A stretch of DNA of 64,000 nt from Podarcis liolepis (lineage: Eukaryota): assembly GCA_965112155.1 (NCBI GenBank), contig OZ218101.1. One strand, given 5' to 3'. Below are positions 1,338 to 64,000 of this stretch, piece after piece (position 1 is the stretch's first letter; each line of letters opens with the position of its first letter). The position numbers were made by a program, and so were the translations under genes. The notes under the pieces were generated by a model. It was not told the DNA's origin, made no database searches, and was given only the letters and a program-made list of their open reading frames with translations.

Positions 1338-2063
1338 TTGCGTGTTCAGACCCAGAAACCTCCCCCTTAAATAAATTCACACAAGACTCAAATTTTGGTT
1401 TTGGTTTTTGGCAGAATTTAGGCCACAACTTTATTGATTACAGAAAAGTGAGTGGTTGCATAGGCTCTGGTTCAACTAGCTCCCTGCCATGCAGGTAGCG
1501 CTGACCCAGGGTTCCAGCATAGGTCAGCCAAGGGTGAACACCCGGATAAGCGGAAAGCTGGGAACGGGCTAACTCCGCCACCCAAATGGCCCCCTGGACT
1601 CAGGCACGGGCACAACCCCCTCTCAGCGGTTGACCAAACCATTGAGTCCCTGGATTCCTTTAACGGAATATCCTTCACATAGAGATGGTGAGAGCGTTCT
1701 CCCATCCCTATCACCTGAACCAGAGCCTGTCTGCAACCTTACAAGTTGTGACGATTTGCTACGCGGCAGGCGAAACCCAAATGGCACCAGCCAATCAGCC
1801 AAGTGGGGAAAATTCCGGCCGTGCCCCTGTCCCAACGACAGATGACACATGGCGGCATAGCAAGTTCAAGTGCAAAGCCCTAAAAGTAGGGAGAGGTGGG
1901 CGGGTGTTCCGAATGCATGCGCCGAAAGAGGAAGCTCTGGGTCAGACTGTGTCCCATTGGCCAGATTGCACCCAGCTTTGAGGGACCTACCAATCAGGTG
2001 TTGTGACTGACCAATCGTACCCACCCACAACACAGGGTGTCGGTTGTCCAGGTCTCACTGCAA
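1338..2063 (-). mobile_element. LTR-like repeat unit, copy 1 (solo LTR or DIRS/Ngaro-type terminal repeat; class unresolved)
   Basis: Shares ends (TTGCGTGTT...TGCAA) and identical internal islands (21 nt at 1649-1669, 34 nt at 1731-1764) with 60735-61438. AATAAA on minus strand at 1430-1435, CCAAT motifs near the other end, no clean TSD. Confidence 0.7.
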
Positions 2064-2560
2064 TACTTGCCCTCTTTAAGGAATGACCCAATTTGCCAAG
2101 TAAAGTGCTTTACACAGGGCTTAAAAAATATGGTTGGGAGGAGTTTGAAGCCGTAAGCAATAGGCTCTGTTCCATTGTAGTGCTGCTCCTTTGTGAGCTG
2201 CTTCCCGTCATGTAAGCGAAGCAAGCTGCTCATGAAGAAGCAATGACTGGCACCCTCCAGCTAGTGAGTGGTAAGATCATATCCTGTGCAGCACCTGCAA
2301 CCCACAGGATCGATGAGCTGATTCTGTGGGGTAGAGCATCAGGCAGGACGGAGAACCATGGCATTGGGTCTCTCTGCTCCTGGAAGCCATAGCCGCCATT
2401 CAGGTAGGTCTCAAACCATTCACATGGTTTTTCCACCCTGGTTCATTCAACCCAACTGTCTATGCCTGACTAGTCTTTCTGACTATGCCCAGTTTGGCTT
2501 AGTACTTGGCTGAATGTGGTGCACACCCTAATAAAAATACTAATGTCATAGGTTTGTAGG

Positions 2561-5149: not shown

Positions 5150-6319
5150 TAGAATTCTTTATTAGTATTTTTTTCACTTTTCACAAATGTGGTTTGAAAT
5201 TTAGGAGACAACTGTGCCTCACATTCCAAGAAGCAGAAGACTATTTAAGAAAATGACTGCCAACAGGATCCAATATTAGACATTTGTCCATCAGATCTGT
5301 GTAGAGAGGTTCTTTGGGCATCCGGTGAATGTGCCTTTTGAGGGTGTGGCATTATTACAGTTCTCCTCCTGAGTTACACACCAGCACTGGAATATCTGTA
5401 GAGAATTTCCATTAATACCAGCGTACATGTGTAGAGTGTTCTCTATAGACATTCTAGTGATTGTGTGTAGGTTAGAGTGGAGGCTGCTGCCACAATTCAG
5501 CAATCCACTCACAACCCACTAGTCCAAACACAGTCTCTATGTGGGAAACAACTTTTCAAAACACTTCAGAAACTTCCACTACTACAAAATGTGGTTGTTT
5601 GAAATAAAATAAAAAATAGACCATTCTGAAGCATCTGCACTGACTTACTTTTTCTGGGTCAGTTCAAAATGCTTTTGAAATAAACTGTTATGCAATTTTT
5701 CACAGATGACTGTGTATATGGATGAAGACATTTTCCTATTATTTCTCTGTAGATGTAATGTGTGAAGTTTCCCTCAGCCACGGTGACCCCTGAAGACATG
5801 TCTCTGAATGTGCAAAGTTCAGTTCCATCATGCTCACAGCACACTTTGCAGCAGCTGATCTCTCAGAGATTACACATTATTTCTTTGAATATTAATGAGC
5901 AAAGAAACACAATAAACTAGATTTCATTTCACAAGTCACTGGAAAGTTTATTTCAAGAGTCATCATTATTTTTTCTCAGTTTTGCTTAAGTCTTTGCTTT
6001 CAAAAGTGAATAATGGCTGAAATGGGTAAGTTATTGTTTTAAAAACATAATCTTGAGAGCTAAGGCATGAATATGCAGTAGATGATGTAGAAGCAAAACA
6101 ATAAAATTAAAACAAGCTGTCCGTGATTTTTCCATTGGCAATCTTCATAAAATGCCCATATGAAATAAATGATGCTGTCTTTTAGTTTGGAAAAATATAT
6201 ATGAAAATTCAACTCACTAACCTCTCCTTGGTCTTACATGTCACAAGCCCAGTTGTCCTTATACCCTAGGCAAGCTTTATTGATTCATCTCATTGCTTCT
6301 CAGTCAGCTGCTTCGATAT

Positions 6320-6545
6320 CCTCTGTTGCCCATAGTACTAGAACTTCAGGACATTCAATGAAACTGAATGTTGGAAGATTCTGGATAGACAAAAGGACTT
6401 CTTCACACAGCACATAATCAAACTATGGAATTCCCGCCCCCCAAGAAACAGTGATGGCCACTAACTTTGATACATAAGGCTATCAGTGGCTGCTAGCCAT
6501 AGTTACTATGTTGTGCTTCCACTGCTGGAGATAGTTTGCCTCTGA
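6320..6545 (+). mobile_element. Degenerate CR1 LINE 3' fragment
   Basis: GGACATTCAATGAAACTGAATGTTGGAAGATT...CTTCTTCACACAGCACATA...AAACTATGGAATT...GTGATGGCCAC matches the squamate CR1 ORF2 end/3'UTR pattern. Confidence 0.7.
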
Positions 6546-7139
6546 CTGCATTGCTACCTAGGACTGTGCTTACTCCCTGGCCATGAAGTTTTCCCATGAG
6601 CATTTCAGAAAGCACACTGCCTACTAAGATGCTGGTCAGTATTACATTTTTTAAAAAAACCAGTTTGTCCACTTCATAACAAGATTAAGAAAAGCCACCC
6701 CCCCACACACAATATTTTAATCAAAATTGTCCTATCTTGAAAGTCACACAAAAATGTCTGCTTTTTTCATTGTGTGTATGTGGAGCACTGTGTTAATACT
6801 GACGATGAATGGCCTCCACAGCCTATGACCATCAGCCTAGGATGCTGTTGTCTATTCTTCTCCACTTCACCACACCAGCCTCTACTGTTCATACTTTCTT
6901 CTGGCTAGTGCTTGGGAGGCTGAGAGACAGGGAAATTATATTTTAACTGATAATTTTCTCTCCTACTACAAGTGCTAAGGTGGCTGAGATGGCTACATAA
7001 TCATCAAAGAGTGGGCAGTGTTCTTCTTTTGGATACTGTCGGACTTTAATCAATTTGCCACAAGCTACCTTTGCATTTCAGGACATTTGACACCACTGTT
7101 TACTTCCCTCTCTCTTTGTCCACATCTGAAACTAACGCT

Positions 7140-7502
7140 CCATGAATCTGATGAAGCGAACTTTGGTTTACGAAAGCTTATACAGTGGTACCTCGGGTTA
7201 AAGTACTTAATTCGTTCCGGAGGTCCGTACTTAACCTGAAACTGTTCTTAACCTGAAGCACCACTTTAGCTAATGGGCCTCCTACTGCTGCCGTGCCGCG
7301 GGAGCCCAATTTCTGTTTTCATCCTGAAGCAAAGTTCTTAACTTGAAGCACTATTTCTGGGTTAGCGGAGTCTGTAACCTGAAGCATATGTAACCTGAAG
7401 CGTATGTAACCTGAGGTACCACTGTACTATGATAAATTAGTTAGCCTTTAAATTGCTATGAGACTCCTGCTTTTTTCTTTTTCTTTGCTGAAACAGATTA
7501 AC
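7140..7502 (+). mobile_element. Penelope-like element terminal fragment with hammerhead-like core, split by a MITE
   Basis: CTGATGAAG...ACGAAAGCTTA[MITE]...TAAATTAGTTAGCCTTTAAATTGC; related copy on the minus strand at 14548-14655. Confidence 0.65.
7183..7424 (+). mobile_element. Tigger/pogo-like MITE
   Basis: TIR CAGTGGTACCTC.GGTTA / TAACC.GAGGTACCACTG with TA on both sides; same family as 32366-32574 and 36677-36907. Confidence 0.9.
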
Positions 7503-36477: not shown

Positions 36478-36643
36478 CAGTAGCGTAGCATGGGGGGGTG
36501 CAGGGGGGGGGCCGGCCGCACCGGGCGCAACATCTGGGGGTTAGGGGGTGCAAATCCACGGGTTAGGGGGTGCAAATCCACAGGTTAGGGGGCACAAATT
36601 ACTTGCCTTGCCCCGGGTGCTGACAACCCACGCTACGCCACTG
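36478..36643. mobile_element. hAT MITE, young
   Basis: TIR CAGTAGCGTAGC / GCTACGCCACTG; perfect 8-bp TSD TGATTACG (36470-36477 / 36644-36651). Confidence 0.92.
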
Positions 36644-37760: not shown

Positions 37761-38201
37761 GAAAATACATTTTCCATAATAACCCACCCTTACTCTGAAA
37801 TCTACCTTTAACTAGTCATGTGCCAATATTGCCATTTAGCCGGTATTCTTATAGCCATGTCCCTGAAAGTAAGCCCTGCTGAGTAGATAGTTGTCCCAAT
37901 TTTCCAGGGACAGTCCTGGAATTACGAAAGCCACCCTGGCTTTTGATTTGATCCCAGAATGTCGCTATTTCCCCTGCCAGTGCTGCCACCATTGAGCTTG
38001 GGGTGGAGGATGAGGTATCACTTGTACCAAGTGGGGGCAGCGGTGAGGGAGCATCCCATGGCCTCTGTATGGCCTCTCCATGGCTGCTGCTGCCAGCTTC
38101 CCCCCTTGGGCAGCTCATAGCTGTTGCTGGACAGTAGAGGGGAGGCTTCCCACATCAAGGCCCAGCTCCACATGACACCAGCTCTGAGAGGCAGGCAGAA
38201 G

Positions 38202-38725
38202 CAGCGGCGTAGCGTGGGTTGTCAGCACCCGGGGCAAGGCAAGTAATTTGCGCCCCCTAACCTGGGGCAAGGTAAGTAATTTGCGCCCCCTAACCCGGGG
38301 CAAGGCAAGTAATTTGCGCCCCCTAACCTGGGGCAAGGCAAGTAATTTGCGCCCCCTAACCCGGGGCAAGGCAAGTAATTTGCGCCCCCTAAACCCTAAC
38401 CTGCCGCCGCTGCCAGCTTCTTCTTGCTGCTGCCTGGACTGGTCTGGTGTGGTTCTCTCCCGCGATCAGCGCTGCGCTGGGCAGCCGCTGCACTGTCCCT
38501 CCCCCAGCCAGTCCCTCTCTCTCTCTCCGCACCGCACGCCTGGCACCCACCCCCTCCACAGTGGGCGGCGACCCAGCGGCTCGGATCGGATTCGCACAGC
38601 CAGCACTGCAGTGAGAGAGAGTGAGTGAGCCAGGTAGGGGCAGAGAGCTGCGAGTGCGAGCGCGCCCCCCGATGTTGCGCCCGGTGCGGCCGGCCCCCTC
38701 CCGCACCCCCCATGCTACGCCACTG
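38202..38725. mobile_element. hAT MITE, same family as 36478-36643, opposite orientation
   Basis: TIR CAGCGGCGTAGC / GCTACGCCACTG; perfect 8-bp TSD GGCAGAAG (38194-38201 / 38726-38733). Confidence 0.92.
38228..38392. repeat. 33-bp minisatellite x5 inside the hAT MITE
   Basis: CC(C/T)GGGGCAAGG(C/T)AAGTAATTTGCGCCCCCTAA repeated five times. Confidence 0.95.
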
Positions 38726-40696: not shown

Positions 40697-41051
40697 GGGA
40701 CACGGGTGGCGCTGTGGGTTAAACCACAGAGCCTAGGACTTGCCGATCAGAAGGTCGGCGGTTCGAAACCCCACAATGGGGTGAGATCCCATTGCTTGGT
40801 CCCTGCTCCTGCCAACCTAGCAGTTCGAAAGCATGTCAAAGTGCAAGTAGATAAGTAGGTACCGCTCTGGCGGGAAGGTAAACGGCATTTCCGTGCGCTG
40901 CTCTGGTTCGCCAGAAGTGGCTTAGTCATGCTGGCTACATGACCCGGAAGCTGTACACCGGCTCCCTCGGCCAATAAAGCGAGATGAGCGCCGCAACCCC
41001 AGAGTCGGTCACGATTGGACCTAATGGTCAGGGGTCCCTTTACCTTTACCT
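40697..41051 (+). mobile_element. Full-length Sauria SINE (tRNA-derived head)
   Basis: A box GGTGGCGCTGTGGG, B box GGTTCGAAACC, (ACCTTT)n tail, 12-bp TSD TAAACTAAATTT (40682-40693 / 41052-41063). Confidence 0.93.
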
Positions 41052-60734: not shown

Positions 60735-61438
60735 TTGCGTGTTGAGGTCCCCAAGCCACCCCTAAAATAACTTACAACACACACATAATTTTTGTTTAAG
60801 GTTTTTGGCATAATTTTAGCCACAACTTTATTGAAATACATAAATGTGAGTGGTTGCTTAGGCAGTGGTTAAGGCTATCTCCCCCCCCCCCCCGCCTGGG
60901 GACAGAACTGACTTCCAGACACCAACAAAAGTCAGTAAGGGAAAACAATATTGGGGAGAAATGGAGCTGAGCTACAGGCCCTCACCTCTCCCTGCATGCT
61001 CTCCAGGACTTGCTGGCCCTAGCCCCATTCCAGGGATTCGGACGAAAAATTGGCAAGCGCCTGGATTCCTTTAACGGAATTCCCTTTCCGCAACAACCTT
61101 GGAGGGGCAGGCCCAGCCCATCCTAACCCCTCCTCCAACCAATTGATAACCAATGCCTAACTGCAACCTTACAAGTTGTGACGATTTGCTACGCAGTAGG
61201 CAAAAACCAAATGGCCCCAGCCAATCGGCCAGATGGACAAAATTCCTACCAGGCCCCTGCCCCAATGGCAGACGACCCCATGACAGGCAAAGGAAGGTCA
61301 ACGCAAAACCCATAAAATTAGGGCATGTGGGCGGGTGATCTGATGCACGCAGTAAAGAGAAAGCACCAAGCAGCGTGCACAGGATTTAAAACAACTAATC
61401 CCACCCACCAAATTGCAACATCGAATTTACCCCTGCAA
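60735..61438 (-). mobile_element. LTR-like repeat unit, copy 2 (same family as 1338-2063)
   Basis: Same ends and conserved islands as copy 1; AATAAA (minus) at 60827-60832; TTTAAA TATA-like at 61385-61390. Confidence 0.7.
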
Positions 61439-64000
61439 CCCGTTTGGGGCTTTAAATGACTTTAAAAGTTGCTCAGTGCAAGGGATCAGTGGAAAAGCTG
61501 AAGGTTACATGCTGTATGGTTCAGTGCACCATGAGGAGCTTGCATAGTTAGAGAGCTATTTAGGATCTCCTACTGACATTTCACATTGGATCTATTTAGG
61601 ATATCCTACAAACAGTTCAACTTGATGAATCACTGACAGGAGTCACCTTCATCTTCTCATCTTGTGCCAGTAGAATCTGTTTTAGTGGAAGGGATGTTTT
61701 GGTATGGGATAATCTTGGTTTCAGTTTGTATAATTCTGTATGCAGAAACCATCCTGCATTGCATTAATCAGTCTTTAGATTGAGGTGCTGAACATTTTTT
61801 TTATCTGGAGGCACATTTGGAAGTCTGAGGAACTGTCATGGGCACCACAAAATACTCACCACAGAAGAAAAACTGGCAATCATTAGACATTCCTGCAAAC
61901 AATGGTCAAACTTACCCCCCCCCCCAATGAAAATGCAGGGAAAAAACAAGAAAACATCACCCCGCAATAGGCAGACCTCAACAACTAAAACACATATACA
62001 CACCTCTTTTAAAAATAATAAGAGGAGCAAGGGGGCTTGACAGGCACCATGGAATTTCTCTTAGGAATATGTAAAGATCTACACAAAAATCTCTCATACC
62101 AGCTTTGAAGGTGGCCGATTTATTATATTAATGATTGCAGAGCCATGGTCCTGTTGTGTTTAGACAGAGCAAATGATTCTGTACTTACTGTCATTATTTG
62201 GTCCACATAAACATTAGCAAGGTGAATTTAAACTCAGGAGACCTTTGGTATTTCAATGCTGGCCCTGTCTTGATTAGAAATTGCTAGTTGCAAGGTGTTT
62301 TTGTAGAGCATACAAACATTCATGATTAAAGCTTCATTTTCATCAGCAGTGTCACGGTTTCTAAATGTTTTAAATAAAATACCAGGGGGTTATGCTGAAT
62401 ACTAAAATGAATGGCTTTTTTTTTTGTCTGCTTCGCCTGTTCCAAGTTTTCATTCTAAAATCACCAAGGTATTACACTTTAAGAAATGGAGCAGGGCAAT
62501 TTTTTTCCTTACTCAAAGCTAGAAGCTCTGCTATCGAAGAGGATTGAAACTTTGCGATAAAGAAAAAGAAACTTCAGGAAATGTTATTCCATTAGACCTA
62601 AAATGACAAGGTGTGGTTGGCCATCACATACTCTTCATAGTTGGCAACTCCTCATAGGGTTGGGGGCATCTGTCAATTTTGGTTTCAATTTCTTATTCTC
62701 TCCCCCCCCCCAAATCTAAATTCAGTTCCCCACATTTCCCCTAATGTAATGCAGCTCTGTTTGTTATTTCTCTAAGATGCATGCACTTTTATGTTCTCTG
62801 TCCCCTGATATACACATTCAGGGGTTGGAAAACTGAATTGCAAAATTCTGAAAAGTGTGAAGTTTGAAGGACAGCTGCATTCAATGCATATATTGTTTTG
62901 GGAAATGCAAATTAGGTACCAAACTCAATTTCTCGCCCACCCCTCCTTCGCAAAGCCTTCTTCAAATACTATTTTTGCTAGAGAAACTTTGCCAATAGTT
63001 TCCTCATAAGTTGTCTTAGGGAACCTAAGGCATGTGGCAGAGGTTTCCCGCCCCCCGTTCAGAACACCCAAGCCTGATCAAGAGTGTAAAGCACAAAACC
63101 TCACTTTCTGTATTTTAGAATCAAGCTGGTTAAAAAAGAGAGGCTTCATCACTCTTGCTGTAGGTTTCCTGTCCTGTTGAACCAATGTGATGAGTAACAC
63201 TGATTTACAATTTTAGTATCTCATATCTCAAGTGTCAGGATTCAGAGAAAAAGACCATTCCATCTGACTAGGATGTAAAAATTGAGAGGTTTATTCATGC
63301 ACTAATAAAAATGTTTTAATGCTGATTTTTGTATCTTTCATCTTTGAACCAATAATATATGACATTTTCACATGTCCTTTCAAGTTCCTGGGCTGACACT
63401 TCCAGATGCGATGTGCCACATAGATTTGCTTCATTCTCATTGCAAAGATCAGAGCTGACTTAGTGTGATAGGTTGCAATGGTTAAGAATCAGATGTGATA
63501 TTTCATTATATCAATCGTCAGCATACTGAATTTGATGAGACAGTTATCCTTACATATCACAAGTTATTGCTGCCTTTCCTTAGAAGTGTTCCATGCTTAT
63601 TAGAGGAACTTCAGGACCAACAGCTCCCTCCTCACATGGAATTACACAACTATTTTCTGAGCAGATCCCAAAATGTGTTATTTTCTTTATTTAAAAAAAT
63701 GTAATTGCAGGATCATATTATGTTGCATATTTTTCCAAAGCTAGCTGAATTTGGGAAGTTTTGATTAACTTTCCTTTCTTTAATATAAATCAGGTGTGTG
63801 GGATATTTGGCGCTCCAGATGGTGCCCTACATCTCCCATCAGCCCTAGTAAACATGGCCGATGGCCTGGGAAGTGTAGTTGAGCATCATCTGGAGGGCAA
63901 AAGGTTTCCCACATGTGATGTAAATGATAGTCACATTTTTCACTTGTCACTTGACTAAATGTCTAATAGCTTATTAAAATGAATGAAAAGGTTAAAGTCT

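Follow-up and report, generated by a model that had tools for sequence, protein, structure and literature searches.

A predicted RNA junction with an ENE-like arm, conserved and covarying, in the spacer of Ngaro retrotransposons of Podarcis liolepis

Retrotransposons carry RNA signals that shape the fate of their transcripts. We describe a hairpin with a U-rich internal loop on the minus strand of a 64,000-nucleotide stretch of Podarcis liolepis DNA (assembly GCA_965112155.1, contig OZ218101.1; hereafter, the window). Its host is an Ngaro tyrosine-recombinase retrotransposon: the hairpin sits on the coding strand, in a spacer that we call M, and the 2 copies in the window are both solo A-M-B remnants of such elements. 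Comparison of related sequences shows conservation and covariation in a larger RNA fold of the spacer between repeats A2 and B2, a three- to four-way junction to which the hairpin contributes one arm. Both the junction and the host go beyond the first-pass annotation, which had recognized an ENE-like module in 2 copies. An RNA junction of this kind, ENE-like in one arm and carried by a known type of transposon, looks previously undescribed: the literature on ENEs and triple helices in transposons and lizards, Ngaro, and DIRS yielded no report in the portions of the sources covered. The primary ENE surveys include slime-mould and stickleback elements, according to the accessible part of one account (PMC7583470), and their supplements could list a tyrosine-recombinase (YR) element.

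The hairpin occupies positions 61250-61195 of the minus strand, where its letters agree with those first annotated. Folded alone, it forms a lower stem, an internal loop rich in U, and an upper stem. The facing U4 and U5 tracts are present in this isolated fold, as is the lower stem, whose description as fully paired holds if one G-U pair is counted. Stability is modest: -19.7 kcal/mol (z -1.97), with 9 of 200 shuffles equally good. An ENE-like descriptor (a 6-bp lower stem ending in GG/CC, at least 4 U per side, and an upper stem starting with CC) matched the window once, at this hairpin, and matched none of 60 dinucleotide-resampled windows; across 567 kb of retrieved loci, it gave no convincing match outside Ngaro. 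The poly(A) hexamer that had been placed about 360 nt downstream lies at 60832-60827, 363 nt from the hairpin. The A-tract CCAAAAACC, said to be common to both copies, is indeed present in copy 1 and at 60800..60808 (minus strand) in copy 2, at the likely cleavage position. Conservation of the hairpin and its U-rich loop, with a hexamer downstream, supports the ENE-like shape and position ascribed to the module.

The module matches a dispersed repeat of about 810 bp with fixed ends in the 1.57-Gb genome. A search pattern for the end-to-start junction of this repeat matched a single genomic place, which holds a complete element of 7,253 bp in the order A1 (1-219), four reading frames, B1 (6025-6443), A2 (6444-6662), M (172 nt), and B2 (6835-7253). 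The repeat pairs of this copy are identical (A, 219/219; B, 419/419), and each complete element has a single M, flanked by A2 and B2. One frame encodes a reverse transcriptase (RT; RVT_1, E 1.5e-12); another, for a tyrosine recombinase, matches Phage_integrase weakly (E 1.3e-4), below Pfam's cut-off. The frame that follows the recombinase resembles an SGNH hydrolase: 5/5 such frames gave GDSL-like matches, with E values from 1.3e-5 to 0.057, none of which reaches the curated cut-off. The RT, YR, and GDSL/SGNH-like frames share their strand with the module. Identities as an LTR element, a MITE, or a LINE were abandoned because this complete A1-ORFs-B1-A2-M-B2 element was found. The element (G000:C137:430318-437570; loci L062 and L063) sits within a tandem array of units of about 185 bp, and its recombinase frame is 272 aa long, against about 330 aa in most relatives.

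Aligned to this reference, copy 2 of the window is a solo A-M-B remnant (60735..61441, minus strand, as are all its features) that is missing the first ~110 nt of A and is 86-89% identical to its nearest retrieved relatives. The 3' part of repeat A spans 61336..61441, its boundary taken from the alignment to the complete element, and contains a TATA-like TTTAAAT (61390-61384) that may serve as a promoter. Spacer M (61165..61335; 172 nt in the complete copy) contains the junction core (61186..61295), composed of helices P1, P2a (61287-61278), P2b (61277-61252), and P3; the covariance model matches 61303-61171 with 132.7 bits. Arm P3 (61194..61251) is the ENE-like hairpin: a 7-bp lower stem, then AA-U4 (61242-61239) opposite U5-G (61206-61202), then an upper stem with tandem pyrimidine mismatches and a variable apical loop. 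The M tail GUCACAACUU (61173..61182) is complementary to a stretch of B at, and just beyond, the poly(A) hexamer. Repeat B (60735..61164) is predicted to pair its 2 ends and loop out its middle; within it, AATAAA and GTTGTGGC, the partner of the M tail, occupy 60819..60832, and the hexamer would, from its sequence, act as the poly(A) signal. Copy 2 also has 2 private changes that disrupt pairs of the closing stem P1. Since it is a decayed, 5'-truncated solo with a damaged P1, other copies would be better suited to bench work, the use for which it had been put forward.

Copy 1 (1338..2094, minus strand) is a solo A-M-B of another Ngaro family, with its arm at 1820-1765 and a model match at 1871-1741 (114.3 bits); its U-runs are only U4/U3. 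The first-pass annotation had seen a compensatory change between the 2 copies at the third pair of the lower stem, U-A in copy 2 and C-G in copy 1. The change is real and recurs in other copies: the pair is U-A in 30/30 copy-2-type solos and C-G in 28/29 scored copy-1-type solos (30 examined, 1 unparsed, 1 with U-G), both samples being best matches per query and thus biased to similarity. It amounts to a single event: a tree of the A and B repeats, made without the module, needs just one step for it. The pair next to it carries a private C.U mismatch in copy 1.

Conservation was assessed by a search with the hydrolase frame, which gave 150 scored relatives (46-100% identity), from which 70 loci were retrieved. 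The order B1-A2-M-B2 is present in 45/70 of these hydrolase-bearing loci; the other 25 end earlier, without M. The 45 M-bearing elements fall into group 1 (37 elements) and group 2 (8 elements), between which identity is 0.52 for A, 0.60 for B, and 0.69 for the M core, against a shuffled baseline of about 0.50 computed on 26 of the 45. The A repeats no longer align between the groups, yet the fold of M is kept, and M is the best-conserved non-coding part of the element. All of this evidence comes from one genome, because scans of metagenomes and viruses gave chance matches or none: a pattern scan of metagenome contigs returned 8 matches, all of them chance by the covariance model (best, 15 bits), and viral contigs gave none by pattern and none by RT.

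Copies are numerous and diverse. A first look gave about 2,900 candidates genome-wide over all families, and contig C20 (40 Mb) carries a large share of the group-2 Ngaro matches; a repeat-rich sex chromosome would be expected to show this, and that C20 is one is a guess. In the subfamily of copy 2, exact matches to the M|B junction outnumber those to the ORF|B junction by 58 to 1. The sole ORF-bearing copy found there (L175, G000:C4:3327849-3330883) is 97% identical in B and stands beside the 58 exact solo-type junctions. Two short copies, L139:870-2100 and L148:912-2100 (element strand), have no ORFs, retain A1-(end of B1)-A2-M-B2 with differing break points, and are possibly non-autonomous. 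A tandem chimera (L145, G000:C14:38971773-38975022) has a first unit that joins the end of P1 straight to the hexamer, with the looped-out part of B deleted; this junction occurs once in the genome.

The fold was evaluated on 46 M sequences: 41 distinct sequences from elements (4 duplicates dropped) and 5 solos of about 60 retrieved. From a plain MAFFT alignment, RNAalifold predicted P1 and P2a and, within the arm, its 7-bp lower stem and its apical stem. We placed P2b, P0, and the upper stem by eye, built a model, and realigned the sequences to it. Across the whole fold, 95.6% of 1,632 pair cells are paired and 8/36 pairs show double changes, counts that lean toward the proposed structure because the alignment was fitted to it. 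None of 500 shuffles did as well, a control that related sequences without structure can still beat, and slid controls gave 38-49%. For the arm alone, on the same fitted alignment, the corresponding values are 95.3% of 644 cells, double changes in 4/14 pairs, 0/500 shuffles, and 34-56% for slid controls. On the A+B tree, pair 28-53 changed on both sides 4 times, and pair 55-113 passed through 3 pair types over 9 steps without ever being mispaired. Together, these data support the module as a genuine RNA structure far more strongly than one covarying pair in 2 copies had done.

The loops of group 2 are UUCG on P2a and GCAA on P2b; together with the many G-U pairs, they point to a fold that acts as sense-strand RNA. 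The helices abut without unpaired bases, which suggests a four-way junction in group 2; P2a has a probability of mostly 0.03-0.13 in group 1, where the junction would therefore be three-way. The lower stem of the arm is predicted at 0.72-1.00 in the context of M plus B2 in 12/12 elements folded. Rfam gave no match anywhere in the window at gathering score, and lax scans returned chance matches only, with no ENE among them. Hammerhead and hairpin ribozyme cores are absent.

The U-rich internal loop has an invariant core. All 46 sequences keep the 2 G-C pairs below the loop, its first A, the G after the 3' U-run, and the C-G pair above; the second A of the AA is kept in 45/46. Each side has at least 3 U in 46/46, and only 3 per side are invariant. 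U-run lengths rise together, from U3/U3 (7/46) to U5/U5-6 (7/46), with U4/U5 in copy 2 of the window and just 3 U on the 5' side in 13/46. The 2 flanking G-C pairs, present in 46/46 and of the kind that an ENE uses for A-minor contacts, are set 2 nt from the U-run: AA and YG stand between the U-runs and these pairs, unlike the layout of a simple single-domain ENE. The upper-stem mismatch consists of only 1-2 pyrimidine pairs, which leaves a single main U loop rather than the two loops of a double ENE. These mismatches (61236-61207 in the window, and homologues) are kept, and their position slides between families.

The hexamer lies 300-370 nt downstream of the arm in 45/45 elements, and its surroundings offer 2 candidate long-range contacts. 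One joins the M tail to the strand after the hexamer, each identical in 43/45 elements. This duplex is worth -13.7 kcal/mol, against -3.7 +/- 1.9 when shuffled. The helix has 9-10 bp, is near-invariant, and shows no covariation; it is predicted at 0.69-0.97 in 4/4 group-2 elements and at <=0.20 in 7/8 group-1 elements, competes with P0, and would overlap 2 bases of the hexamer. Modeled in this way, it could place the poly(A) site of B2 beside the arm. The other contact lies upstream of B1, where another strand is predicted to pair immediately ahead of the hexamer (8-22 expected pairs in 12/12 elements). Pairing within a group (-19.0/-19.5 kcal/mol) is stronger than across groups (-15.7/-16.6 kcal/mol), and the shuffled control, a weak one, already reaches -14.2 +/- 3.3. 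All complete elements (for example, L067 and L105) carry a small conserved hairpin upstream of B1 as well as the strand that pairs before the hexamer, with sequence specific to the group on both sides. By eye, the apical loop in group 1 seemed to kiss the loop that follows AATAAA; this contact was dropped, as it did not appear in group 2.

Our leading explanation, held tentatively and at slightly under an even chance, is by analogy with known ENEs: the arm would be a poly(A) clamp on read-through genomic RNA, where a short triple helix protects the full-length transcript. Genomic RNA would read through the hexamer of B1 and end at the identical hexamer of B2, since no other RNA would carry the B|A junction from which the ends can be rebuilt. 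Given this layout, M would be restricted to the read-through RNA and a short transcript started at the A2 promoter. Repeat B would fold out, the M-tail helix would set the cleavage site and the start of the poly(A) tail next to the arm, and the tail would enter the loop to form 3-5 U.A-U triples by the 2 invariant G-C pairs. The triples would then slow deadenylation of the genomic RNA, as the ENE of Evade is reported to do in the accessible part of PMC12501189. The clamp is favored by the invariant loop core, the G-C pairs, the joint lengthening of the U-runs, and the complementarity of the M tail; the ENE hallmarks (PMC7583470, PMC8704770, PMC13541005) and the Evade precedent (PMC12501189) are taken from the portions of these papers available to us. 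Against it stand the short runs (3 U on the 5' side in 13/46, U3/U3 in 7/46), compared with 5 triples in PAN RNA in the part of PMC7583470 consulted; so do the invariant AA and YG in the loop, a junction whose remainder is as conserved as the arm and is dispensable for an ENE, the weak prediction of the M-tail helix in group 1 and its lack of covariation, and the absence of an ENE match in Rfam. In a wider version, Ngaro would use M as a platform for replication at the 3' end: the long-range helix would feed the tail to the arm, RT would bind the junction, and cDNA would start at the clamped end. We consider it distinctly improbable. If true, it would provide the priming step so far missing from accounts of tyrosine-recombinase retrotransposons, and solo A-M-B copies could be made directly from the short A2 transcript, with a template switch onto full-length RNA.

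That conservation of the entire multi-arm fold and of non-U loop bases also suits a different role, in which the junction would be a recognition signal by which RT or Gag selects replication-competent RNA for packaging or cDNA start, with the U loop as a widened, protein-binding groove. M would be present only in RNA with the B|A junction, the internally deleted L139 and L148 retain A1, the end of B1, and A2-M-B2, and DIRS-1 has no known primer, as far as the accessible text of PMC7192593 goes. The 58-to-1 ratio of exact M|B to ORF|B matches in the copy-2 subfamily fits as well, but the excess of solos may stem from A1 x A2 recombination and loss of long copies, and such recombination has been proposed for the solos of Cafeteria Ngaro (PMC8547959, in the part accessible). 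Facing U-runs that lengthen together between G-C pairs are the ENE signature, and M has no conserved TGG-started 18-nt block, the mark of a tRNA primer site, judged from sequence alone. We regard recognition by RT or Gag as rather unlikely, and as the main rival of the clamp. The long-range contacts invite a further proposal, to which we give a small chance: M would take part in a switch of RNA folds through which B1 and B2 come to differ in the behavior of their identical poly(A) signals, and the arm would be its scaffold. At B1, a helix of group-specific sequence, stronger within its own group, precedes the hexamer, and at B2 the M tail pairs after it instead; yet shuffled sequences already give the B1 helix substantial stability, predicted hexamer accessibility shows no consistent difference between B1 and B2, and the invariant U-rich loop is left unexplained. 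Such a switch can coexist with either the clamp or the RT/Gag signal.

Two further readings are unlikely because GATTGG and CCAAAAACC are unconserved and no tRNA-like element is called. The first-pass annotation had offered a genome-encoded A-tract as the third strand, which would make the module a blunt, MALAT1-type triplex. CCAAAAACC is present in both window copies and in 33/37 group-1 elements but in 0/8 of group 2, whose U-runs are the longest; every element of both groups keeps the arm. The tract also lies after a canonical hexamer and ahead of a GU-rich stretch, and the search for a downstream tRNA-like element gave no gene in 4/4 loci by ARAGORN, which may miss mascRNA-like folds, and none by Rfam. 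This option is already largely refuted, and we give it next to no weight. The apical loop of both window copies contains GATTGG, which we take to be an inverted CCAAT box, and the module might then be a DNA element, its symmetry incidental or acting in single-stranded DNA. GATTGG is found in only 19/37 group-1 and 0/8 group-2 cores, however, and its position is downstream of the TATA-like box; the abundance of G-U pairs and the UUCG loop suit sense-strand RNA instead. A role as DNA is accordingly very doubtful.

Plant and fungal double ENEs such as TWIFB1 were reportedly described by Tycowski (2016) and Torabi (2021). The host of the present arm, by contrast with these and with Evade, is a vertebrate YR element, and there is one main U loop (comparison with the accessible parts of the sources). 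In Arabidopsis Evade/Copia93, too, a unique spacer that immediately precedes the retroelement's last terminal repeat holds a U-rich fold (PMC12501189, in part). The single-domain ENE of KSHV PAN RNA, as far as available text describes it (PMC7583470, PMC8704770, PMC13541005), compares with 3-6 U per side here, 3 of them invariant; unlike that ENE, the arm has extra AA/YG in its loop, is built into a junction, and lies 300-370 nt from the hexamer, and an ENE function is proposed for it by analogy. The triple helix of MALAT1/NEAT1 and the anole lizard loci that are MALAT1-like resemble our case in a U-rich internal loop, a vertebrate genome, and many copies, and differ in that the Ngaro module has a canonical AATAAA in place of a conserved genomic A-tract or tRNA-like element (PMC10869381, in the portion seen). 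As for the host, the hydrolase-bearing Ngaro type represented by Xenopus DIRS-53_XT has the same A1-gag-RT/RH-YR-hydrolase-B1-A2-B2 layout with identical split repeats (PMC9210276); Cafeteria Ngaro leaves solo AB repeats (PMC8547959), as do the solo A-B remnants here; and SIRE of VIPER has an exclusive stretch of about 30 bp between A and B (PMC6681497), where the spacer here has about 170 nt. The accessible parts of these 3 accounts describe no structured spacer or RNA element, unlike what we find (PMC9210276, PMC8547959, PMC6681497).

The selection and priming of RNA by tyrosine-recombinase retrotransposons is a standing question, and transposon ENEs have been described mainly from plants and fungi. 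A covarying element of 130 nt, probably confined to replication-competent RNA, provides a small, defined target for both questions. If the arm clamps with as few as 3 triples, it would broaden the known design of ENEs. Moreover, since there are many genomic copies, host transcripts with 3' ends in solo copies might be affected too, should the clamp work.

Four raw RNA runs contained 73-151 reads each, on both strands and mostly from other families; among the loose ends listed for these reads there was no poly(A) end, and no 3' end was obtained. Elsewhere in the window, a common short interspersed repeat at 40730-41050, similar in look to the Sauria SINE, gives a weak chance match to the ENE descriptor. 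Finally, five 33-bp tandem units lie at 38194-38395, with an inverted partner at 36578-36643.
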